Positions 3,427 to 49,500 are shown, counted from the stretch's first letter. The stretch: 64,000 bases of DNA from a bacterium (GCA_021814695.1 JAKAHY010000002.1:8920-72919); one strand, 5' to 3'. The notes: generated from the letters alone by a model not told the origin. A program made the numbers and translations.

Positions 3427-3469
3427 CTGTTTATTTATGATAGTGCCTTGTGGGATTTTTTTGCAAGCG

Positions 3470-3480
3470 ATGTGATATAA
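3470..3480 (+). promoter_or_regulatory. Extended -10 promoter TGTGATATAAT (copy 1 of 4)
   Basis: TGTGATATAAT sits within a conserved GCAAGCGATGTGATATAATGAAACAAAT block, 18 nt before ATG 3499. No Shine-Dalgarno sequence is present. Confidence 0.65.
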
Positions 3481-3498
3481 TGAAACAAATAAAAAACT

Positions 3499-5643
3499 AT
3501 GAAAAAATCTTCATTAATCGTGGTCATTTTGCTTGTTGTGGCAAGCGTAGGAATGACCGTCATCTTTTCAAATCAAGTGTCGATAAAGGGATTTCTATCG
3601 AGCGTTTATTCTACTGCATCAGGCAGAAATCATATACAGCTGGCAAACGCTCAGTCCTTGGGACAGGGGGTTGTAGTTTTTAAAGCGCAATTTGGCCATT
3701 TGGAAGCAACCGGCCAAGTTGTCTCCGGTATTTCCGGACTAGCGGGGCTGCCGGTGACAAAATTTGTTCCCGACAGAGACCTTTCGGATTCTGAAAAAAA
3801 GCAGGTTGAAGTAAACATCACCGAAGAGAACACCGTTTTCGGATTTATTGTGGCAAAAAACGTTTCATTAGGGCAGGGAATCGGTTTTAACATTCCCCAA
3901 GGAGAAGTTTATAACTACGGTTTTTATGTGAATTCCGACATCCTTCCTCAAGGATGGACATATAACTCTTCTTGCGTAGAGACGGGAGGAAATATTAAAT
4001 TATCTGCCGGCCAACAAAGCGAATGCACGATAGGTTTTTATCTGAAACCAACGCCTGCGCCGGTTACTCCTCCCGCTTCGACGTCCACTCCCGTCTCACC
4101 TCAGGAAGGAGCGTCAGGTACCGTTATTAGTGAAGATTCCGGTTCTGGATCGCTGCAGTTTGTAAAAAATATTTTGGACTTAAGTACGGGGTGGAAAAAC
4201 CCCGGATCGGATAAAATATTGGACGCAAAAATCGTTGAATTATACGGAAAGAAATTTCTTATTGTTTCGACTCAAAACAAACATTTGCTTGTTTACGATG
4301 CTTCAAACCAGTTTTCGCCGGTTCTTTTGAAAGATAATGATTTATCAGGCAGTAACGTGTCGGCGTTTTATCTTGTGGTTTTAGATAATTTCAATTACGT
4401 ATTTGCCTGGGGAGGAAACTCTGCCAACTACGGATCTTTTAAGATTGAACAAGACGGATCTGCGTCTCTGGTAAAAAGTTACAAACCTGACCAATATAGC
4501 GTTACTCAACCGAATTTGGTTTTCGGGTTGTTTAGAGGGTTAGACGGTAAAGCGTATGGATTTGGAGGGAACGGGGGCGATGGATGGCTAACTATTTATG
4601 ACGTGTCCGATCCGGCAAACATCAGCGAAATTGGATCATATCAAGATGGCTTAGTCGGGAATCACTGCGGCAATTATGGTCTGATTGGATTGGACAGGCC
4701 GCTTCAATGGAATACTTCTCAACAAGGGAACAAGCTTTATCTGGTAACTCATGCGGACCAGTGCGTCCAGCGGCTGCATACTTCCGGAGACGCCAGAATT
4801 TATATTTTTGACGTTTCTGATCCAAAAAATCCGCAGCTTTCCCATCAATATGAGCTTTCCGGTTCTTTTAACCACATACCTTCGGACGCGACTAAGGCCG
4901 AACAGACATTTCTTTTTGGCGGGATCGCCGACATTGCCGTTGATTCAAATTCGGGTAAGGTTTTTGATTTTTACAGGACGGTTTTTGATTGGCAGGGGCC
5001 ATCCTGGTCTCAGATAGCAAACATAGTGCATGGTACTTTGTTTAGATACAGAACCGGACTGGTCACTCTTTCACTGCAATCGGACGGTTCTCTAAAAGAA
5101 TTGTCGCGGGCTTTATTGTGCGAACAAAAGGGCCCAATGTATGATGGTGGCGGTCCGCAATATTATCGATGCGGCGACGTGGATGGAAACGACAAAAATA
5201 CCCAAGGCGGATATGATTATTCGGCAAGAAATTCTCAACAAAATTACAACGGAGTTTTTCTCCTCAGTGGGCCGGGAAATAGCGGTCAGGTGGGCTTACT
5301 AAGGAGTGATAATAGTTTTGTTGTCATTCCCGATACCGCCGGAGAGATGACTAAATTTAAGACGGCTATTAAAGATTCATCTTATTATTCGAATATCTAT
5401 AATCCCGCTATCAATGGTGTTGTGACCCAGGTTGACAGTAAAACATTTGCCATCTATCAATTTGATAGTTATTCGTTAAGCGTCGTTAAGGTTTTGTTGT
5501 CGCAATCTCTTGTGGGGGGATCGAAAAATCCCTCTCCTCCAGTGACCGGAGTTGCGCCTTCGGCAAACGTACCACTAACATCACCCGCATTTTCATTTAA
5601 TGCGCTCCTGAACATCTTCAGAAGGATACTTAACAACTACTAA
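3499..5643 (+). CDS. Secreted/surface LVIVD-repeat (beta-propeller-type) protein, paralogue 1
   Basis: It has an N-terminal hydrophobic signal/anchor. LVIVD-like repeats include LTIYDVSDPANISEIG, IYIFDVSDPKNPQLS and LLVYDASNQFSPVL. An S/P/T linker is followed by the C-terminal tail PAFSFNALLNIFRRILNNY. Confidence 0.8.
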   Translation: MKKSSLIVVILLVVASVGMTVIFSNQVSIKGFLSSVYSTASGRNHIQLANAQSLGQGVVVFKAQFGHLEATGQVVSGISGLAGLPVTKFVPDRDLSDSEKKQVEVNITEENTVFGFIVAKNVSLGQGIGFNIPQGEVYNYGFYVNSDILPQGWTYNSSCVETGGNIKLSAGQQSECTIGFYLKPTPAPVTPPASTSTPVSPQEGASGTVISEDSGSGSLQFVKNILDLSTGWKNPGSDKILDAKIVELYGKKFLIVSTQNKHLLVYDASNQFSPVLLKDNDLSGSNVSAFYLVVLDNFNYVFAWGGNSANYGSFKIEQDGSASLVKSYKPDQYSVTQPNLVFGLFRGLDGKAYGFGGNGGDGWLTIYDVSDPANISEIGSYQDGLVGNHCGNYGLIGLDRPLQWNTSQQGNKLYLVTHADQCVQRLHTSGDARIYIFDVSDPKNPQLSHQYELSGSFNHIPSDATKAEQTFLFGGIADIAVDSNSGKVFDFYRTVFDWQGPSWSQIANIVHGTLFRYRTGLVTLSLQSDGSLKELSRALLCEQKGPMYDGGGPQYYRCGDVDGNDKNTQGGYDYSARNSQQNYNGVFLLSGPGNSGQVGLLRSDNSFVVIPDTAGEMTKFKTAIKDSSYYSNIYNPAINGVVTQVDSKTFAIYQFDSYSLSVVKVLLSQSLVGGSKNPSPPVTGVAPSANVPLTSPAFSFNALLNIFRRILNNY

Positions 5644-8333: not shown

Positions 8334-8358
8334 ATCCCCCTAGCTGGGGGATTTTTTT
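8334..8358 (+). terminator. Rho-independent terminator
   Basis: ATCCCCC-tagct-GGGGGAT followed by TTTTTT. Confidence 0.8.
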
Positions 8359-8366
8359 GCAAGCAA

Positions 8367-8377
8367 TGTGATATAAT
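8367..8377 (+). promoter_or_regulatory. Extended -10 promoter TGTGATATAAT (copy 3)
   Basis: GCAAGCAATGTGATATAATAAAACAAAT lies 19 nt before ATG 8397. Confidence 0.65.
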
Positions 8378-8396
8378 AAAACAAATAAAAATAACC

Positions 8397-10580
8397 ATGA
8401 AAAAATATTCATTAATTGTGATTATCTTACTTGTTGTTGCAAGTATAGGGATTACCGCTATCTTTTCAAGTCAAGTGTCGATAACCGGATTTCTTTTGAG
8501 CGTTTACTCAACTGTTTCGGGGAGCAATCAAATACAGAGAGTAAATGCACAAACGACAGGCCAAGGAACCATATTATTCCAAGGCCAATTCGGTCATCTT
8601 GAATCGACCGGAAAGGTCACTACCGGAATTTCGGGCTTATCCGGACTTCCGGTGATGAAATTTGTTAAAGACCGTGACCTATCTAGCGATGAAAAAAATC
8701 AGATTAGAGTGGATGTTATTGAACATAACACTCCTTTTGAATTTGTAGTTGCAAAAAATATTTCGCTTGGAGAGGGTGTTAATTTTAATATTCCCGTAGG
8801 TTCGACATATAGATATAGTTTTTATGTTCACCCCGACTCGATTCCCTCCGGATGGGTTTATTATTCCGGTTGTTTAGAGACCGATGGGAATGTTTCGGTA
8901 CTGGCCGGTCAGCAAAGTACTTGCAGCATAGGATTTTATTTAAAGCCCGAAACAATCTCACCCCCTCCGGTCACATCAACATCTACGATCACGTCTACTC
9001 CTTCGGTAGGTGTTTCGGGAACTGTTGTCGGTGAAGATGCCAGCGCAGGATCGTTGCAGTTTGTAAAAAACGTTTTGGATTTAAGCTCACAAAGAAAGGG
9101 CATTATTTATGGAGTTTTGGACGCAAGAACCGTTAATTTGTATGGAAAAAATCTTCTGATAGTTGCTAGAGGTGGAGCTTACTCTGCTACCACTCCAACC
9201 TGGCATATGCTTGTTTATGATATAACCGATCCGCTTGCCCCGGTTCTTTTGAAGGATAATGATATGTCCGGAAGTGGCATAATCTATAGTTCTCCAATGA
9301 CCGGTTTGGCAGTGCTTGATGGCTTTAATTATGTATTTGTCCGTGGAAATGTCGGTTACGGTTCGTTTAAAATTAATCAGGACGGAACTGCGTCTCTTGT
9401 GAAAAGCTATAAATATTCTGAAGTTCAGCAGATACAGACAGATTTAATCAGGGGATTGTTCAACGGTCTGGATGGAAATATATACGGCTACGGAGGGTTT
9501 GTGCAGGATGGAGGACTCGTGCTTTATAACGTTTCCGATCCCGCTAATATTATTCAAGTTGGAACGTATACTAATGGTCTTGAACCAGCGATTGCCATCT
9601 ATGGACAAATTGGATTGAATCGCCAGAGCACTTGGGGCGTTGTTAAAGAAGGAGGCAAACTTTATCTTATTGCTCATGCGGACCAGTTGGTTCTGCGCCT
9701 TCATACGGATTATGATGGAATGATTTATGTTTTTGATGTGTCCAATCCGGCAAGTCCGCAGCTTTCACATATCTATAAAATGTCCAGCTCCTTTAATCAC
9801 CTTCCTTCCGATATGACTTCGTATGAGAAGATGTTTCTTTACGGAGGAGAAGCTAATATATCGGTTGATCCAATATCAAATAGAGTATTTGATTTTTACA
9901 GAACGGTTTTTGATTGGCAGGGACCCAATCAGCTTAAGATAAAAGACATTCCTAAAGGAGCCTTGTTTCGTTATAGAAATGGAATAGCCGTTCTTTCAAT
10001 AGGAATCGATGGTTCTTTGAAATCAAGTTCCAGTAACATATTATTGTGCGAAAGAATAGCCATTCAAGATAATGGGACGTCAGGCGAAGATAAATGTGAT
10101 ACAAAGAGTCCCGAAACGGTTGGGGGATATTATAGTTCCAGTCTTTATGGAAACAGGAATCCTCAAGAAAATTATAACGGAGTATTTCTTCTTGGCGACG
10201 TGAATAATGTCGGACATGTAGGGCTGTTAAAAAGCGATGGTAGTTTTGTTATCATACCCGATCCAACCGGAGAAATGCTTAAATTCAAATCTGTCTTGGC
10301 TGACCCGTCGTATTATTCCGATCCTGGTTTTCGTTCGTCTCCAATCAATGGCATTGTCACTCAAGTTGATAGCAAAACCTTTGCAATATTTCAGATTGAT
10401 AATTATTCCATAAGTGTTACAAAGCTAAATCTATCACAATCCATAACGAGCGTAACACAAAAATCTTCGCCACCTACCACAAATGCCCCTAGTTCATTAA
10501 ATACATCATCTCCTACTCAGACTCCATTTTCCTTCAGCTCGCTCCTGAGAATATTTCAGAGGGTGTTCAATAGTCAGTAA
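8397..10580 (+). CDS. Secreted/surface LVIVD-repeat protein, paralogue 3
   Basis: It is collinear with paralogue 1 along its whole length. Repeats include LVLYNVSDPANIIQVG and MIYVFDVSNPASPQLS. The tail is TPFSFSSLLRIFQRVFNSQ. Confidence 0.8.
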   Translation: MKKYSLIVIILLVVASIGITAIFSSQVSITGFLLSVYSTVSGSNQIQRVNAQTTGQGTILFQGQFGHLESTGKVTTGISGLSGLPVMKFVKDRDLSSDEKNQIRVDVIEHNTPFEFVVAKNISLGEGVNFNIPVGSTYRYSFYVHPDSIPSGWVYYSGCLETDGNVSVLAGQQSTCSIGFYLKPETISPPPVTSTSTITSTPSVGVSGTVVGEDASAGSLQFVKNVLDLSSQRKGIIYGVLDARTVNLYGKNLLIVARGGAYSATTPTWHMLVYDITDPLAPVLLKDNDMSGSGIIYSSPMTGLAVLDGFNYVFVRGNVGYGSFKINQDGTASLVKSYKYSEVQQIQTDLIRGLFNGLDGNIYGYGGFVQDGGLVLYNVSDPANIIQVGTYTNGLEPAIAIYGQIGLNRQSTWGVVKEGGKLYLIAHADQLVLRLHTDYDGMIYVFDVSNPASPQLSHIYKMSSSFNHLPSDMTSYEKMFLYGGEANISVDPISNRVFDFYRTVFDWQGPNQLKIKDIPKGALFRYRNGIAVLSIGIDGSLKSSSSNILLCERIAIQDNGTSGEDKCDTKSPETVGGYYSSSLYGNRNPQENYNGVFLLGDVNNVGHVGLLKSDGSFVIIPDPTGEMLKFKSVLADPSYYSDPGFRSSPINGIVTQVDSKTFAIFQIDNYSISVTKLNLSQSITSVTQKSSPPTTNAPSSLNTSSPTQTPFSFSSLLRIFQRVFNSQ

Positions 10581-29233: not shown

Positions 29234-30157
29234 ATGCTTTTTTCGCGAATAACAAAAAAAGATATTTTGATATTTATCGTCGTTTTCCTGGTTTTGGGCG
29301 CTATTTTTGTTTTACATAAGCCCACATCGTTTATCGGAGATAATTATGCCGTTGTGGAAAATTCGAGCATCCCCAAACTTCAGGTGGCTACCTCATTTCC
29401 ATTGGCGGCTGATTGGATAAATTCCGTCGGCAAAGACCGGGTTCAGGTACAGGTTTTTGCATCACCCACGGATGATGGGCTGATTCAGTGGCTAAAAAAG
29501 CCCTCTTCGGATGCTCCACAGGAGACCAAAGTTTTTGTTTCTATGGGAAATAATTTTGACCAATGGGCCCAAGAACTGTCCGGGGGAGATCCCAAAATAA
29601 AAATTGATGTTATGATTTTGAGTAATTTTGCGTCTCCGGTTAAAACATATCCTACTTTATCGGGTTCTTCTAAGAACGCTGAAAATTCCTCACCTTACTA
29701 TTGGCTTTCACTTGAGAATGTCCGGGAGTCAGTTCAGGGCATTGCCCGGGAATTTGGAAAAGTTGATGCTGCCGATAGGGAATATTTTATAAACAATGCA
29801 TATGAATATTCTGTCAGACTCGATTCGCTGCTGCACGAAACTGTGGATGTTTTGGGAAGTATCAGAAATACCGCAGTGGCACTTGATGGCGCCAGATGGG
29901 CTCCTTTTGTAGACAGTTTGCAGTTGCGGGTTGTCGGGTTGTTTGATTCAAACTCCACAGAAGACATCAAGGCTATTCTTAAAAAAAATAAAATCACCAC
30001 AGTTGTGACCGATAGCGATTCGAACGGCCGATTTTTGGAACCGGCATTATCCGGGACGACCGTATCGGTTGCTGTCATAGATCCCTGGGGACTTAATAGC
30101 AATAACTACGTGGATTTTATGCGCTCTAATATTTCGGAACTGATGAAAGCGCTTTAG
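29234..30157 (+). CDS. ZnuA/TroA-like solute-binding-protein homologue lacking the metal-ligand histidines
   Basis: VATSFPLAADWINSVGKDRVQVQV aligns with IATTIFPVFDIARNIVGDKIQVIQV of the SBP at 43054. SPH and DPHYW of that protein are replaced here by SPTDDG and SPYYW. No ABC partner genes are adjacent. Confidence 0.5.
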   Translation: MLFSRITKKDILIFIVVFLVLGAIFVLHKPTSFIGDNYAVVENSSIPKLQVATSFPLAADWINSVGKDRVQVQVFASPTDDGLIQWLKKPSSDAPQETKVFVSMGNNFDQWAQELSGGDPKIKIDVMILSNFASPVKTYPTLSGSSKNAENSSPYYWLSLENVRESVQGIAREFGKVDAADREYFINNAYEYSVRLDSLLHETVDVLGSIRNTAVALDGARWAPFVDSLQLRVVGLFDSNSTEDIKAILKKNKITTVVTDSDSNGRFLEPALSGTTVSVAVIDPWGLNSNNYVDFMRSNISELMKAL

Positions 30158-30227
30158 TTTTTATAAAAAAGTTTATTAACATGATGGACTTTTTTTAAAA
30201 ATCACGATAACATAAACTCACAAATTT

Positions 30228-30299
30228 GCGGGTATCGTATAGCGGCTATTATACTTCCTTGCCAAGGAAGAGATACGGGTCCGACTCCCGTTACCCGCT
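30228..30299 (+). tRNA. tRNA-Gly (anticodon GCC)
   Basis: The acceptor stem is GCGGGTA/TACCCGC. The anticodon arm is CTTCC-TTGCCAA-GGAAG. The T arm is ACGGG-TCCGACT-CCCGT. CCA is not encoded. The T loop has C at position 55. Confidence 0.9.
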
Positions 30300-30337
30300 C
30301 AAAAACAAAAATTACCCAAACGGGTAATTTTTGTTTT

Positions 30338-30466
30338 GGGTGTTGACGGGGTAGGATGCGGGGTGGTCGAGGGGCTGCAAGCCCCTCGTGTTGGAAATTA
30401 TTCAAAACCGAGGGTTTTGAAGGAGCGAATATAATGAGCGACGTCCGATTTCCCGTTACCCGCTCA
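30338..30466 (+). repeat. tRNA-3'-end-capped structured repeat ('type A' unit), Gly(GCC) copy
   Basis: It reads GGGGTGGT, P1 CGAGGGGCT-gca-AGCCCCTCG, TGTTGGAAA, P3 TTCAAAACC-gag-GGTTTTGAA, then ...GAGCGACGTCCGATTTCCCGTTACCCGCTCA. The last ~20 nt repeat the tRNA-Gly 3' end. Confidence 0.8.
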
Positions 30467-30502
30467 AAAACAAAAAGCACCACAAGGGTGTTTTTTGTTT
30501 TC

Positions 30503-30653
30503 TGTCCGCCCGGAAGGGAGTCTCACGTCGCTCCGACATTGCGTCGGAGCTCCCAAGACACCCTCGGTTTCTTGACGCTCCTCCGGAGCTTTTTCCTACA
30601 CGGGAGATTAAGCATCTCCCGACCCCTCTCTATTCAATTCCTTGTTGACGAAC
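30503..30653 (-). repeat. Type A unit, Lys copy 2
   Basis: On the minus strand it reads GGAATTGAATAGAGAGGGGT, P1 CGGGAGAT-gctta-ATCTCCCG, TGTAGGAAAAAG, CTCC-gga-GGAG, CAAGAAACC-gag-GGTGTCTTG, GCTCCGAC-gcaat-GTCGGAGC, then GACGTGAGACTCCCTTCCGGGCGGACA. Confidence 0.8.
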
Positions 30654-30689
30654 AAAACAAAAAATATTCACAAAGGATATTTCTTATTT

Positions 30690-30827
30690 TGTCCGCCCGG
30701 AAGGGAATCTCACGTCGCTCCGACCTTGCGTCGGAGCTCCTTAAAACCATTCGGTTTTAATATTTCCTCCACGGAAAACCTTCGGTTTCCCGACCCCATC
30801 CGATTTGATTCCTTTACTGACGAATAT
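30690..30827 (-). repeat. Type A unit, Lys copy 1
   Basis: On the minus strand it reads GGAATCAAATCGGATGGGGT, P1 CGGGAAACC-gaa-GGTTTTCCG, TGGAGGAAA, AAAACC-gaat-GGTTTT, GCTCCGAC-gcaag-GTCGGAGC, then GACGTGAGATTCCCTTCCGGGCGGACA. Confidence 0.8.
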
Positions 30828-30865
30828 AAAACAAAAAGCACCACAAGGGTGTTTTTTGTTTTCTG

Positions 30866-30938
30866 TCCGCCCGGAAGGGATCGAACCTTCGACCGTCTCC
30901 TTAAGAGGGAGCTGCTCTACCAGCTGAGCTACGGGCGG
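30866..30938 (-). tRNA. tRNA-Lys (anticodon CTT)
   Basis: The acceptor stem is CCGCCCG/CGGGCGG (C1:G72). The D arm is GCTC-AGCTGGTA-GAGC. The anticodon loop is CTCTTAA. The T arm is GAAGG-TTCGATC-CCTTC. CCA is not encoded. Confidence 0.88.
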
Positions 30939-30978
30939 TACGAAACCATTCTGCCATCAAAAAAATAATTTTGCAATC

Positions 30979-31920
30979 TTATGGCTGAAAAATCGGTTGG
31001 GTTTGTCCATCAATTGAAAGCGTTATGGATTTTATTGTTGGAAATTGAAGGAGTGTTTGTTTTATTTGTGCCACACGCATTGCCATGGAACATGAACCGC
31101 CCCCAGATTCTGTTAGCGAATTAAAATCGGCATGCGCATTGTCGTTGCTGTCTATGGAAAGAGAATTTAAATCAGAACCTGGTGGCAAGGAGCTTGTATA
31201 TCCGGAATCACTTTCGTCTTGAGTTGGCCCGGCAAAAAGCAATTCCAGTGCTGCCGTCGCTATTTTGGGAGTGGTTATTATCTGTCTTTCTACGGGAACA
31301 ACTTCTTTGCAGGTTTTTTCCGGCTTTATTTTATTGTTGGCAAAATAAACCTTGATTGAAACGAATTCCGGCATGGACGATTTGGAAGAGCTTACTTGTA
31401 AAGATTGGATAATTTTTAATGATTCATCAACCGGTTTCTTCAGATGAGCAATGACAAAACCGGGTGTTTGGGCAAAAATTATCCATTCGTCGGTAATATT
31501 TGAATAAGTAGCAACATCATTCGTCTTATAAGAAAAATTATTTAAAGAAGGTAAACAATCCGGACATTGTGACTTATATTGATTTTCCCAAAAATCTTTT
31601 GCCGAAGGGAAACCGGCAGCACCGTTATAGAAAAAAGAAACCGTATTTATCTGATTATTTGAAAGATTTTCTATGGTAACAAGCGATGGCAATGTAACTT
31701 TTGACTTAAGAGAAAATTTATCTTTGGGGTATGAAAATTGGTAAGCGATATTTTGAAAATCGCCTTCATATCCGACAACGTAAGAGTTTGAGAAGGTTGC
31801 CAGTTCCGGAGAAGGAGATGGGGCATTAACGGTTGAAATGGGATTATTTTTTATGAATCCAAAATAAGCGGCTATTGTCGCCAATAAAAATAATAAAATA
31901 AAAATAATTGTTTTCTTCAT
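30979..31920 (-). CDS. Membrane-anchored protein with a C-terminal GerMN-like domain
   Basis: It has an N-terminal TM helix. The C-terminal region ...ALELLFAGPT..E...GYTSSLP.G..L.S..I....A..DF.. is GerMN (germane) domain-like. Confidence 0.6.
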   Translation of the reverse strand: MKKTIIFILLFLLATIAAYFGFIKNNPISTVNAPSPSPELATFSNSYVVGYEGDFQNIAYQFSYPKDKFSLKSKVTLPSLVTIENLSNNQINTVSFFYNGAAGFPSAKDFWENQYKSQCPDCLPSLNNFSYKTNDVATYSNITDEWIIFAQTPGFVIAHLKKPVDESLKIIQSLQVSSSKSSMPEFVSIKVYFANNKIKPEKTCKEVVPVERQIITTPKIATAALELLFAGPTQDESDSGYTSSLPPGSDLNSLSIDSNDNAHADFNSLTESGGGSCSMAMRVAQIKQTLLQFPTIKSITLSIDGQTQPIFQP

Positions 31921-47164: not shown

Positions 47165-47791
47165 ATGTCCGAAGAAGCTATCCGCATCAGCAACACCGCA
47201 GGGATTTTTCTGGTTATTCTTCCATCTTCAGGCGAGACGGAAGTGAAGACGGTATTGGTATTGGGAAAGTCTGAATTGGTAGAGCAGAGCAACGGCACTG
47301 TTTTTTCCAAGCCGCGCATGTGGGGATTGCCCAAGGGAAGGATGAAGTCCGATACGGATGAAGACGTTGTCACAACCGCCCTCCGAGAGTTTCAGGAGGA
47401 AACCGGAATCACCGAGATTTCCAAGGGTATGATCAATTGGGAGTTGTCCGTAACGGAGAAGGAATGTTCACTCCGTCCGGGCTCAGACGAACATCACAAG
47501 ACGTTTTTCCTGGTGGTTATGAAGAAAACGCCCAAGATCGGAATTCCTGTCGATCCCAAGATTGAGAAAGCCCAGATTTTTTCCATCAGCGAACTTCCCA
47601 TCACGGGCGGAACAAAGTTGGCCAAAAGTCATGCTCGGGCCATGAGCGCACTTCTGGAAAAGTGCCGGCCACAGCTTTTGGCAGAAGGCGTCCATCCCAT
47701 GGTTTTGGCTATGTGCGAGGTAGGCCTGTCCCACAAGCCGGGAGAAAATAAACCCGATGACGAAAAGAACAATTTCCGCAATCAGCGGTAA
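47165..47791 (+). CDS. NUDIX hydrolase
   Basis: The Nudix box is GLPKGRMKSDTDEDVVTTALREFQEETGI. I prefer ATG 47165 to TTG 47126 as the start. Confidence 0.85.
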   Translation: MSEEAIRISNTAGIFLVILPSSGETEVKTVLVLGKSELVEQSNGTVFSKPRMWGLPKGRMKSDTDEDVVTTALREFQEETGITEISKGMINWELSVTEKECSLRPGSDEHHKTFFLVVMKKTPKIGIPVDPKIEKAQIFSISELPITGGTKLAKSHARAMSALLEKCRPQLLAEGVHPMVLAMCEVGLSHKPGENKPDDEKNNFRNQR

Positions 47792-47818
47792 CTCCGAGCA
47801 TGTCTCGGAGATTTTTTT
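47792..47818 (+). terminator. Rho-independent terminator
   Basis: CTCCGAG-catgt-CTCGGAG followed by ATTTTTTT. Confidence 0.8.
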
Positions 47819-47837
47819 AATCAAAAAATAATATTTG

Positions 47838-47960
47838 AAAATATCCCGACAAGTGAGGGGATTTTGTATAGTCCTTCTTCGCATAAAGCTTCGAAGGACA
47901 CTTTTCGTCTGGCTTGCACTTCGTAGCTCGCCAGGGCGAAGAAGTGAGCGGGTAAGGGGA
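47838..47960 (-). repeat. 123-nt direct repeat, copy 1 (tRNA-Gly 3' end + type B motif)
   Basis: By eye it is identical to 48066-48188, at an offset of 228 nt. On the minus strand it reads CCCCTTACCCGCTCA, then CTTCTTCGCCCTGGCGAGCTACGAAGTGCAAGC...GTCCTTCGAAGCTTTATGCGAAGAAGGAC...ATCCCCTCACTTGTCGGGAT. Confidence 0.85.
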
Positions 47961-48062
47961 AGTCTTACGCTCACCCCCGACCCCCGCTTAAGAAACCTTC
48001 GGGTTTCTTACGTCCCTATTTTCCAACACGGGGGTTCGCATTCGACTCCCAAACTCACCCAC
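47945..48062 (-). repeat. Type A unit, Gly(UCC) copy (variant arrangement)
   Basis: On the minus strand it reads GGGAGTCG-aatg-CGAACCCCCG, TGTTGGAAAATA, TAAGAAACC-cgaa-GGTTTCTTA, then GGGGGTCGGGGGTGAGCGTAAGACTTCCCCTTACCCGCTCA. Confidence 0.7.
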
Positions 48063-48065
48063 AAA

Positions 48066-48188
48066 AAAATATCCCGACAAGTGAGGGGATTTTGTATAGT
48101 CCTTCTTCGCATAAAGCTTCGAAGGACACTTTTCGTCTGGCTTGCACTTCGTAGCTCGCCAGGGCGAAGAAGTGAGCGGGTAAGGGGA
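48066..48188 (-). repeat. 123-nt direct repeat, copy 2 (overlaps the genuine tRNA-Gly(UCC) 3' end)
   Basis: See copy 1. Its upstream end is the real T-stem and acceptor 3' strand of the tRNA at 48175-48245. Confidence 0.85.
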
Positions 48189-48245
48189 GTCGGACCCCTC
48201 TCATCAGCTTGGAAAGCTGAGGTAATACCGATATACGATACCCGC
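48175..48245 (-). tRNA. tRNA-Gly (anticodon TCC)
   Basis: The acceptor stem is GCGGGTA/TACCCGC. The anticodon arm is TCAGC-TTTCCAA-GCTGA. The T arm is AGGGG-TCCGACT-CCCCT, again with C at position 55. CCA is not encoded. Confidence 0.85.
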
Positions 48246-48307
48246 TTAATGTGAATAAAGGTAACAAATTTTCTTGATTTTTTCAATAACTCAGGTAATC
48301 TGAGCGT

Positions 48308-48922
48308 ATGTTTTTGGACAGGTTCGATAGATTGCCTAAAAAAATTAGAAGGACCGCATGGGTTGTTATCGGATTGGTGGTTTTGATGTTGATTGCATAT
48401 TTGGCGTGGAGTTACTTCGGTTCCCATGTGCCGGGAGATTTCAACGAGGCCAGGATAGCGGCGTCCGTGGAAGCTAAAACGATTGCCGATACCCTGAAAG
48501 ATTCTCCTGAGAATCTTCAAAAAATACAACAACTTCAGGAAAAGTGGAAAGACGATCAGGCGCTGACACTTTTGGTTGCGGAGTTCCAAAAAAACCAGGC
48601 AGCCAGAGATGCATCGGTTAAACTTGCGGGAGAACTGGAAAGAATGGCTCAGGCCATTCCCGACATTCGTCCCAAAAAATCCGCCGAAAATGCTTTAGTT
48701 GCAATAACTACCGAAACTCAGTTGATTTATAAACTGGTCTCGTTTAATGATGATATGAGTCAGTTGCTTAAGTTGATGCAGGATAAAATTACGAATAAAA
48801 TCTACGGGGTGGATAAAGTAAATCAATTAGTGGATGCCATTAATTCCGAAGTCGATTCGATAAATCAGCTCAATAATCAGTTTGAAGATTATCTGAAAAC
48901 GTTTGACGGGTCGTTTAATTAA
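48308..48922 (+). CDS. Membrane-anchored coiled-coil protein, unknown function
   Basis: It has an N-terminal TM segment (WVVIGLVVLMLIAYLAW), and the remainder is helical. Confidence 0.55.
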   Translation: MFLDRFDRLPKKIRRTAWVVIGLVVLMLIAYLAWSYFGSHVPGDFNEARIAASVEAKTIADTLKDSPENLQKIQQLQEKWKDDQALTLLVAEFQKNQAARDASVKLAGELERMAQAIPDIRPKKSAENALVAITTETQLIYKLVSFNDDMSQLLKLMQDKITNKIYGVDKVNQLVDAINSEVDSINQLNNQFEDYLKTFDGSFN

Positions 48923-48941
48923 TTTAGGTTTTTATAAAATT

Positions 48942-49014
48942 GGGCCGTTAGCTTAGTTGGTAGAGCGCCTCGTTTGCAACGAGGAGGTCACCGGTTCGAA
49001 TCCGGTACGGTCCA
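48942..49014 (+). tRNA. tRNA-Ala (anticodon TGC)
   Basis: The acceptor stem is GGGCCGT/ACGGTCC with G3:U70. The anticodon arm is CCTCG-TTTGCAA-CGAGG. The T arm is ACCGG-TTCGAAT-CCGGT. Confidence 0.92.
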
Positions 49015-49052
49015 CATAACAAAAAAATTGCCTAGCGCAATTTTTTTGTTAT

Positions 49053-49184
49053 GATGAATCAGGGTCGGTTTGAATATTTAGGGGTCGGGGTATTTGTAAA
49101 TACCCCGAGTAAGAAAATTTGAGAAACCGTGGGTTTCTCACGAACGAATGAAATGAGTGAGGTGAGATTCCGGTACGGTCCACA
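49053..49184 (+). repeat. Type A unit, Ala(UGC) copy
   Basis: It reads GGTTTGAATATTTAGGGGT, P1 CGGGGTATTT-gta-AAATACCCCG, AGTAAGAAA, TGAGAAACC-gtg-GGTTTCTCA, then ...GAGGTGAGATTCCGGTACGGTCCACA. The last 19 nt repeat the tRNA-Ala 3' end. It ends 4 nt before ATG 49189. Confidence 0.8.
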
Positions 49185-49188
49185 AAAT

Positions 49189-49500
49189 ATGAAAAAATCA
49201 GAATATCTTTTGAGAAGTTTTATAAATGCGGCTGGAGTATTTGTTTATGTAGCATTGATTGCCTGGCTGGGTTTTAACAGCAAAACAATTTTTGGAGAAG
49301 CTCCAAGTTTTATTGCGCCATTGTTTATGCTTCTTTTGTTTGTCGTGTCGGCTTGTATAACGGGCCTATTGGTCTTGGGTAAGCCAATTCTTATGTATTT
49401 GAACAATCAGAGAAGAGAGGCCATTGTTTTATTTTCGGTTACTCTTAGCTGGCTCGTATTGTTTTTGGCGATTATCGCGACTGCTCTTGCCTTAAGATAA
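49189..49500 (+). CDS. Small membrane protein (3 TM), unknown function
   Basis: I prefer the start at MKKSEYLL. The upstream 20 codons of ORF 49129 are a translation of the type A repeat. Confidence 0.6.
   Translation: MKKSEYLLRSFINAAGVFVYVALIAWLGFNSKTIFGEAPSFIAPLFMLLLFVVSACITGLLVLGKPILMYLNNQRREAIVLFSVTLSWLVLFLAIIATALALR

Follow-up and report, generated by a model that had tools for sequence, protein, structure and literature searches.

A perfect direct repeat at a tRNA-Gly(UCC) gene and the tRNA-linked repeat units of Patescibacteria

[quoted passage not shown] The TLRs (Egan & Landy 1978, Rudd 1999) include the 178-bp repeats of tyrT with the RtT RNA as well as the small RNAs (sRNAs) RrA, RrB, and RrF (PMC8144298). 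In rrn operons, TLRs are flanked by a terminator on either side and rely on read-through for their transcription; for those in tRNA operons, no function is known (PMC8144298). Since 1978, TLRs have been without an accepted function or origin (PMC8144298). Here I describe repeat units, termed type A, in a 64,000-nucleotide stretch of bacterial DNA (GCA_021814695.1, JAKAHY010000002.1:8920-72919), which is called the window below. TLRs are the closest known kind to type A, although the two are analogous, not homologous. At the tRNA-Gly(UCC) gene of the window, a type A unit lies between the two copies of a perfect 123-nucleotide (nt) direct repeat, which also carries a second element, termed type B. 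I favour, with moderate confidence, the reading that type A is a Patescibacteria-specific element which duplicates the end of its host gene, that it lies here beside a solo type B module, and that the flanking repeats recombine.

The tRNA-Gly(UCC) locus

It was found by an exact-repeat search of the window that the segments 47838-47960 and 48066-48188 are identical at 123 of 123 positions, with a start-to-start distance of 228 nt (Table 1). A chance origin is excluded for such a repeat. A first-pass annotation of this DNA had noted the apparent base-for-base identity, and it had also given the correct coordinates and minus-strand order: the tRNA, type B, a variant type A unit, the duplicated tRNA 3′ end, and type B again. 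The tRNA gene has no encoded CCA. The two open reading frames (ORFs) that the annotation had ascribed to the repeat, 47835..48254 (+) and 48008..48589 (-), do exist. As both overlap the tRNA and the repeats, neither is a credible gene. The locus is best described as two unrelated ORF-less repeat elements, type B and type A, juxtaposed in the 3′ flank of a tRNA gene. Type B happens to fall in the duplicated host segment here.

Is the repeat also present in related strains? The neighbours of the locus are a NUDIX gene and a gene for an unassigned 204-amino-acid protein, and related contigs were found in public assemblies via the exact sequence of this protein. L121 and L123 have the two-copy form and are identical to the window. 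In L122 (GCA_027423305.1) and L124 (ERZ27237587), exactly 228 nt are absent, which correspond to the unit and one repeat. All four contigs have 0 differences from the window over the next 3.6 kb downstream. Because two otherwise identical assemblies lack exactly 228 nt, the 123-nt repeat is real, and the 228-nt block was gained or lost very recently. This supports the earlier proposal of a very recent duplication or ongoing gene conversion. The young event is one of two things: the duplication or integration as such, or a homogenisation in the recent past, after which some strains underwent deletion. A search of the JGI metagenomes with the 204-amino-acid neighbour, made for orthologue-based dating, found no relatives.

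L124 differs from the window at one more site. Just upstream of tRNA-Gly(UCC), at the promoter region of the tRNA (48246-48275), about 25 nt are replaced by about 90 nt of unrelated sequence. Everything else in L124 is identical apart from the 228-nt block. Because of this 68-nt difference, L124 represents a separate haplotype. Its contig name marks a MEGAHIT k of 141, a k-mer longer than the 123-nt repeat, and a repeat collapse in L124 is unlikely, judging from how such assemblers work.

The type A unit of this locus appears to be a divergent member of its family. The covariance model R1 (described below) matches 47982-48062 on the minus strand with 33.1 bits (E 1e-7), and the other five units of the window with 55-69 bits. 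The unit retains CGUGUUGGAAA and the P4 hairpin. Where other units have the canonical 5′ GGGGUCGGG and the P2 hairpin, it has a long-range pairing between ACCCCCG and the GGGGGUCGGGGG block. The annotation had called this copy rearranged, and rightly so: the GGGGGTCGGGGG block lies near the 3′ side and pairs with the 5′ ACCCCCG in the minimum free energy (MFE) fold. The MFE fold of the unit is a rod of -57.5 kcal/mol (z = -5.05), and 0 of 200 shuffles are as stable. In this predicted fold, pairing of the 5′ arm (GUGGGUGAG) with the copied tRNA 3′ end (CUUACCCGC) follows the acceptor-stem register of the tRNA itself (G1-C72, U2-G71, G3-C70, G4-C69, G5-C68, U6-A67, G7-U66, and two more pairs). 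The 5′ arm is complementary to the host 3′-end copy, with 9 bp between GTGGGTGAG and CTTACCCGC.

The other window units are only 60–66% identical to this unit, and the possibility that it is a recent copy of one of them was rejected for this reason. Among all six units, the pairwise identity is 60–78%, while the flanking repeat is perfect. Therefore, the unit is old and the repeat is young. This goes beyond the first-pass annotation: youth is confined to the flanking repeat, or to the most recent event that rendered its copies identical.

Type A and type B as separate families

The architecture of the tRNA-Gly(UCC) locus is general, a point that the annotation did not make. At five of the eight tRNAs of the window, a hairpin with a T-run comes next, then a GC-rich unit of approximately 120 nt, and lastly an exact copy of the 3′ end of that same tRNA. 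The model R1 was built from a seed of 87 aligned cores, four of them taken from the window and the remaining ones from other genomes; the Gly-UCC and Gly-GCC units were not in the seed. A scan of the window with R1, run without speed filters, found exactly six units. Each lies downstream of and co-oriented with a tRNA and ends in the 3′ end of that tRNA.

The same architecture is found across Patescibacteria. The motif GGGGTCGGG-N(10-20)-CCGWGKARGAAA occurs four times in the window, where 0.00 occurrences are expected. It was found at no fewer than 120 genome loci, almost all in Patescibacteria and mostly in the Parcubacteria group; one genome per species was scanned, and a few high-GC chance matches are among these loci. 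The 2.9 million viral contigs gave a single match to the motif. A phage origin of type A was rejected, as this lone viral match fails the covariance model.

The core has two helices with strong covariation, P2 and P4. In these, 95.3% of the alignment cells are paired, compared with 83.1% in shuffles, and 221 cells show double changes, compared with 59 in shuffles; none of 500 shuffles reached the observed values, and sliding the partner columns makes the signal collapse. Optional variable hairpins are P3, P5, and insertions in the P4 loop, and C-GAA-G loops are frequent. A comparison with Rfam 15 at gathering thresholds and a cmscan with E <= 10 over 47700-49300 and 30150-31000 detected nothing beyond tRNA and tmRNA (transfer-messenger RNA). 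Known ribozymes, riboswitches, sRNAs, RtT, Y RNA, and HEARO were thereby excluded, having no Rfam match at E <= 10. No description of type A or type B was found in the searchable literature.

The rules of the architecture were drawn from 102 units in other genomes. Within 300 nt upstream of 44 of them lies a co-oriented tRNA, and 30 further units start less than 200 nt (many of them 12–50 nt) past the stop codon of a co-oriented ORF. About 40% of type A units follow a tRNA or a tmRNA. The layout is invariable: the 3′ end of a host gene, a spacer or terminator, a 5′ arm, the conserved core, and a second copy of the host 3′ end, with an element of about 80–130 nt. At 33 tRNA-linked loci, the exact tRNA copy begins 13–18 nt (mode 15) before the tRNA end. 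The copied span consists of the 3′ strand of the T-stem, the 3′ strand of the acceptor stem, and the discriminator, plus the CCA where it is encoded in the gene. Identity mostly ends 0–2 nt past the tRNA end; it goes on for 9–68 nt in some loci and for 108 nt at Gly-UCC. Thus, the copy tracks the tRNA boundary. The copy stays identical while the units themselves diverge to the extent given above.

Just upstream of the core, the 5′ arm repeats the T-arm in inverted form, reading for example ATTTGAA where the T-loop is TTCAAAT. More generally, the arm is an inverted copy of the start of the second host-end copy, and together the two would close the core as helix P1. The arm ends 10–13 nt before the core. 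For the inner part of P1, at least eight of nine pairs are present in 37% of units and in 9.6% of swapped controls. These are anchored tests. Since conserved T-arm sequences pair across units, whole-flank duplex energies (-20.0 vs -16.3 kcal/mol) are a poor test of P1.

Protein-coding hosts show the same anatomy. In L011, the last 73 nt of the EF-G coding sequence are duplicated, and beyond the perfect part both copies encode IIEGKRR and a stop with only synonymous differences. L036 has a duplication of the last 66 nt of pgk, and L027 has a duplication of 113 nt at the 5′ end of fusA. In all three, the start of the downstream repeat reappears, inverted and almost exactly, as the 5′ arm. In L066, L037, and L118, the repeat (H) spans the host end, the spacer, and the arm, so that the arrangement is H-core-H with the core central in an inverted repeat. 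The Pro locus of the window is a degenerate form of this arrangement, with an arm lacking a core at 35729-35746. Both the tRNA-Pro unit and its second hairpin precede this extra 5′ arm (GGGGAATTGAATCGGAAG), which looks like what a lost second unit would leave behind or like a duplicated host segment's end.

The only recurrent ORFs near about 110 type A units are those of EF-G (nine loci) and a small GIY-YIG protein (seven loci, approximately the background level). EF-G (fusA) is the commonest protein-coding neighbour, and units are found at both its 3′ and 5′ ends. L095 has two units 856 nt apart (positions 928 and 1784), with 100% identity that extends over about 130 nt upstream. The sequence preceding each of them ends in ...GAAGCCCCCGCAA, and ARAGORN calls no tRNA there; a different small RNA gene may be the host.

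At 30228-30938 of the window, a single bidirectional hairpin is common to two convergent arrays. The plus strand has tRNA-Gly(GCC) with one unit, and the minus strand has tRNA-Lys(CUU) with two tandem units. A 53-nt perfect repeat (30467-30519 and 30828-30880) is present in the Lys array, whose middle copy carries a different hairpin. The contig L126 (ERZ27237563), from a sister strain, was compared with 30690-30980 of the window; the two are identical as far as a point within Lys1, past which the divergence is about 10%. Lys1 of L126 has a different P5 hairpin, and the 3′ strand of its P2 helix is Lys2-like, making P2 a chimera of Lys1 and Lys2. Either a recombination breakpoint or a conversion between units lies inside Lys1. 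The chimeric helix means that the units are also recombination sites. Elsewhere in the window, a T-arm/acceptor-like fragment (GGGTTCGGTTCTCGCTGGATCTACCA, 37382-37407) lies downstream of the unit-less tRNA-Ala(CGC). It does not match that tRNA and may have been left by the 3′ end of a different one.

Type B is a very widespread palindromic module and a family of its own; that it is unrelated to type A had escaped the annotation. Its fold has -37.5 kcal/mol (z = -4.27). In JGI metagenomes, at least 120 sequences match the hairpin CCTYC-GWAGCTTTATGCGAA-GRAGG exactly, and among the matches listed, most are not near tRNAs. Across at least 120 contigs (L136-L255) with a GC content from 23% to 59%, the 25-nt hairpin is conserved base for base, and it is often nested in further palindromes rich in CGAAG/CTTCG. 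No type A unit was found in 100 type B loci (515 kb of contigs), and the idea that type A and type B form one system was rejected on this basis.

Beside a tRNA or tmRNA 3′ end, the type B hairpin was found at both Gly-UCC copies, at the tmRNA locus of the window, and in L225, L203, and L178. A small GIY-YIG ORF begins 20–60 nt past the hairpin in five metagenome loci and at the tmRNA locus of the window. The order in L225 is tmRNA, type B, GIY-YIG (an ORF with 70% identity), type B hairpin, and a copy of the tmRNA 3′ end, while that in L203 is tRNA-Gly, type B, and GIY-YIG. The window tmRNA locus (2266-2988) has the layout of a miniature homing-endonuclease-like insertion duplicating the host 3′ end. 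A tblastn search of the window detected the GIY-YIG ORF only at 2294-2530 in this locus and not at the type B copies of Gly-UCC. I regard type B as a flanking module of miniature GIY-YIG elements at tRNA and tmRNA 3′ ends, and the Gly-UCC copies as ORF-less solos.

The window also contains a diverged duplication of about 1.5 kb (3449-5000 and 8345-9925, offset about 4.9 kb) with blocks of 70–94% identity. It looks like a paralogous gene pair with conserved upstream regions.

Table 1. Coordinates and properties of the repeat elements and associated genes in the window
Feature	Position	Strand	Evidence or remark
tRNA-Gly(UCC)	48174-48245	minus	ARAGORN; Rfam RF00005 at 48175-48245, 53.2 bits vs threshold 29
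Direct repeat copy 1, 123 nt (last 15 nt of tRNA, type B trailer, hairpin with T-run)	48066-48188	minus	100% identity
Type B module copy 1, 108 nt	48066-48173	minus	sequence and fold
Type B copy 1, long-range stem region	48128-48173	minus	
Type B copy 1, conserved hairpin GTCCTTC-GAAGCTTTATGCGAA-GAAGGAC	48099-48127	minus	
Type B copy 1, terminator-like hairpin ATCCCC..GGGAT, then T-run	48066-48090	minus	
Unique 105-nt segment between the repeat copies	47961-48065	minus	divergent type A unit
Direct repeat copy 2, 123 nt (tRNA 3′-end copy, type B copy 2)	47838-47960	minus	
tRNA 3′-end copy CCCCTTACCCGCTCA	47945-47959	minus	within repeat copy 2
Type B module copy 2	47838-47945	minus	conserved hairpin at 47871-47899
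228-nt block (unit and one repeat)	47838-48065		alignment of related contigs; register within repeat arbitrary
Whole Gly-UCC type A unit as predicted RNA	47945-48062	minus	MFE and centroid structures
5′ arm GTGGGTGAG of Gly-UCC unit	48054-48062	minus	preceded by T-run
P4 hairpin AAGAAACCCGAAGGTTTCTT in Gly-UCC core	47990-48009	minus	
GGGGGTCGGGGG block of Gly-UCC unit	47974-47985	minus	near 3′ side, then T-arm-like end
Gly-UCC unit, R1 match	47982-48062		33 bits, E 1e-7; not in seed; 15-nt copy inside 123-nt repeat
Gly-GCC unit, R1 match			63 bits; not in seed; 26-nt 3′-end copy
Pro unit, R1 match			69 bits; in seed; 18-nt 3′-end copy
Ala-UGC unit, R1 match			69 bits; in seed; 15-nt 3′-end copy
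Lys1 unit, R1 match			55 bits; in seed; 16-nt Lys copy
Lys2 unit, R1 match			69 bits; in seed; 16-nt Lys copy
tmRNA gene	2672-2988	minus	
Type B hairpin at tmRNA locus	2549-2577	minus	
GIY-YIG ORF, 79 amino acids	2291-2530	minus	Pfam PF01541, E 5e-14
Diverged copy of tmRNA 3′ end	2266-2284	minus	

Possible origin of the units

How might the tRNA-Gly(UCC) locus have formed? If type A is a host-end-duplicating element, the perfect 123-nt repeat would be a duplicated host segment containing the tRNA tail, type B, and the hairpin. The two copies would recombine with each other, leaving the 228-nt block present or absent among otherwise identical strains. The difference would fit a loop-out deletion or, in the reverse direction, the Campbell-type integration of a circle composed of the unit and the homology. 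Recombination at host ends may gain and lose units, build arrays, and leave footprints of an arm without a core. The unit would be transcribed by read-through from the tRNA. According to the predicted structure, its RNA may fold as a rod closed by the acceptor-like helix P1. By analogy with what was proposed for the E. coli TLRs, it might then be trimmed by the enzymes of the upstream tRNA.

Several points weigh against this reading. It gives no account of how the core reaches a new host gene or how the inverted 5′ arm is formed, because no recombinase, reverse transcriptase, transposase, or integrase was enriched among the clustered ORFs within 1.2 kb of about 110 units. No sigma-70-like promoter was found in the arrays. 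A terminator-like hairpin lies between the tRNA and the unit in 24 of 42 loci, and any transcription of the unit therefore requires read-through. The acceptor-like helix is not general, with seven of seven pairs in 11% of units and in 3% of controls. As the pairing of the arm with the acceptor is barely above controls, a tRNA minihelix was rejected as a rule of the family and kept for Gly-UCC and a few other loci. The Gly-UCC unit itself is low-scoring without the canonical 5′ GGGGUCGGG and helix P2, and it is perhaps no longer a working copy but a relic in decay. The one-copy form of L122 could be a collapsed repeat, and the strain comparison fits a gain of the block as well as a loss.

A functional small RNA is a possible, though less probable, identity for type A. 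It would be a domesticated trailer RNA like RrA, RrB, and RrF rather than a selfish element, released from tRNA transcripts that read through, by RNase P, trimming of the 3′ end, and the CCA-adding enzyme. The tRNA copy would be kept identical by selection, and the strain polymorphism would be an incidental deletion between the repeats. The conservation of the core with compensatory changes across distant Patescibacteria lineages fits this idea, as does the coincidence of the copy boundary with the tRNA boundary, at 100% identity while the units are 60–78% identical. The predicted fold of the Gly-UCC unit reproduces the acceptor-stem register, and E. coli provides a precedent of processed repeat RNAs between two terminators (PMC8144298). 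However, the same core follows protein genes with coding copies of up to 113 nt and matched arms, which a processing signal does not explain. The units are dispensable within a clonal population, their copy number and position vary, and the arrays have yielded no promoter. I consider it unlikely, but worth stating, that type A is a new class of ORF-less element capturing the 3′ end of whatever gene or transcript precedes it. Its active form would be a small circle or an RNA-derived copy of the core and the host-end homology, closed by P1. Entry and exit by recombination in the homology might then account for the inverted arm and the long direct repeats as well as for the arrays and the polymorphism among strains. 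Either some enzyme would recognise the conserved core, or the core would be catalytic itself.

The remaining explanations have less in their favour. A plain local tandem duplication by replication slippage or unequal crossing-over, with no element-specific biology, is improbable. A perfect direct repeat with a short spacer does look like a slippage product, and a deletion between repeats would explain the one-copy strains. However, the spacer belongs to a family with at least 120 genomic loci, and the layout is seen again five times elsewhere in the window and in dozens of other genomes, with the same tRNA position as the boundary of the repeat. It is very improbable that the locus is the scar of an integrase-type element, mostly deleted, whose attL and attR share the tRNA 3′ end. 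Although tRNA 3′ ends are classic integration sites with direct repeats starting in the T-loop region, and the units at protein genes carry an apparent replacement gene end with synonymous differences only (L011), no integrase was called within about 3 kb in the gene and Pfam lists, nor was one enriched near units. Only 105 nt lie between the repeats, and they are a conserved structured core. Dozens of target genes, each with matching arms, are beyond one site-specific recombinase. I give hardly any credence to an assembly artefact, in which the second 123-nt copy and the spacer are mis-joined or the true copy number is different. Perfect repeats are prone to assembly error, and the first-pass annotation had raised this possibility. 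However, the identical two-copy structure is found in three independent assemblies (the window, L121, and L123), and the one-copy L124 is a distinguishable haplotype. The 123-nt repeat is shorter than the final MEGAHIT k-mer (141) implied by contig names, and the spacer looks like a genuine type A member in the expected place and orientation.

Six units in 64 kb are a notable load for the very small genomes of Patescibacteria, and the family is not in Rfam. In metagenome-assembled genomes, the units and their perfect flanking repeats lead to spurious ORFs, contig breaks, and copy-number errors.

Comparison with known systems

[quoted passage not shown] They are unrelated to type A. Like miniature inverted-repeat transposable elements (MITEs) and the REP/BIME, ERIC, Correia, BOX, and RPE repeats, type A is short, multi-copy, intergenic, strongly folding, and ORF-less. 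Like small bacterial repeats in general, it can form arrays and vary in presence between strains. MITEs have terminal inverted repeats conserved within the family and short target duplications of fixed length. In type A, by contrast, the interior is conserved, the arms are specific to the host site, and the flanking duplication is 15–123 nt long; no cognate transposase was found near units. A MITE identity was rejected because the arms correspond to the local host gene and because of the length and variability of the flanking duplication.

Organelle and phage genomes are known to contain free-standing homing-endonuclease insertions with a duplicated 3′ end of the host gene. Type A loci share their order of a gene with a functional 3′ end, an insert, and a displaced copy of the 3′ end, and the tmRNA locus of the window has a GIY-YIG ORF and type B in this place. 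However, the Gly-UCC locus is ORF-less, and GIY-YIG ORFs near type A are not enriched beyond about 6%. Another comparison is with tRNA-like processing elements, such as the t-elements of plant mitochondria and mascRNA. The predicted acceptor-like helix and the tRNA-type 3′ end of type A could likewise recruit RNase P, 3′-trimming enzymes, and the CCA-adding enzyme, although a true T-loop and a full acceptor mimic occur only in a minority of units.

The resemblance to the E. coli TLRs is the closest. In both, repeats lie directly downstream of and co-oriented with a tRNA or, in E. coli, also an rRNA, as is the case for all six window units and for 44 of 102 units in other genomes, and end in the 3′ end of the upstream gene (15–26 nt in the window, 18–19 bp in E. 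coli). Both have one to several tandem copies per locus, such as the two at the window tRNA-Lys. On the other hand, there is no homology between them in sequence or structure, and Rfam RtT (RF00391) has no match at E <= 10. Unlike TLRs, type A has a covarying multi-helix core, and its 5′ arm repeats the host end in inverted form. It is also found behind tmRNA and protein-coding genes, whose ends it duplicates, and is confined to Patescibacteria. Type A is an independent and much larger family that shares the hallmark of a repeat ending in the 3′ end of the upstream gene. Its covarying RNA-like core, host-matched inverted arms, tmRNA, EF-G, and pgk hosts, and filled and empty alleles make the puzzle testable. 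If 3′-end capture were true of type A, the same logic might also explain the TLRs of E. coli.

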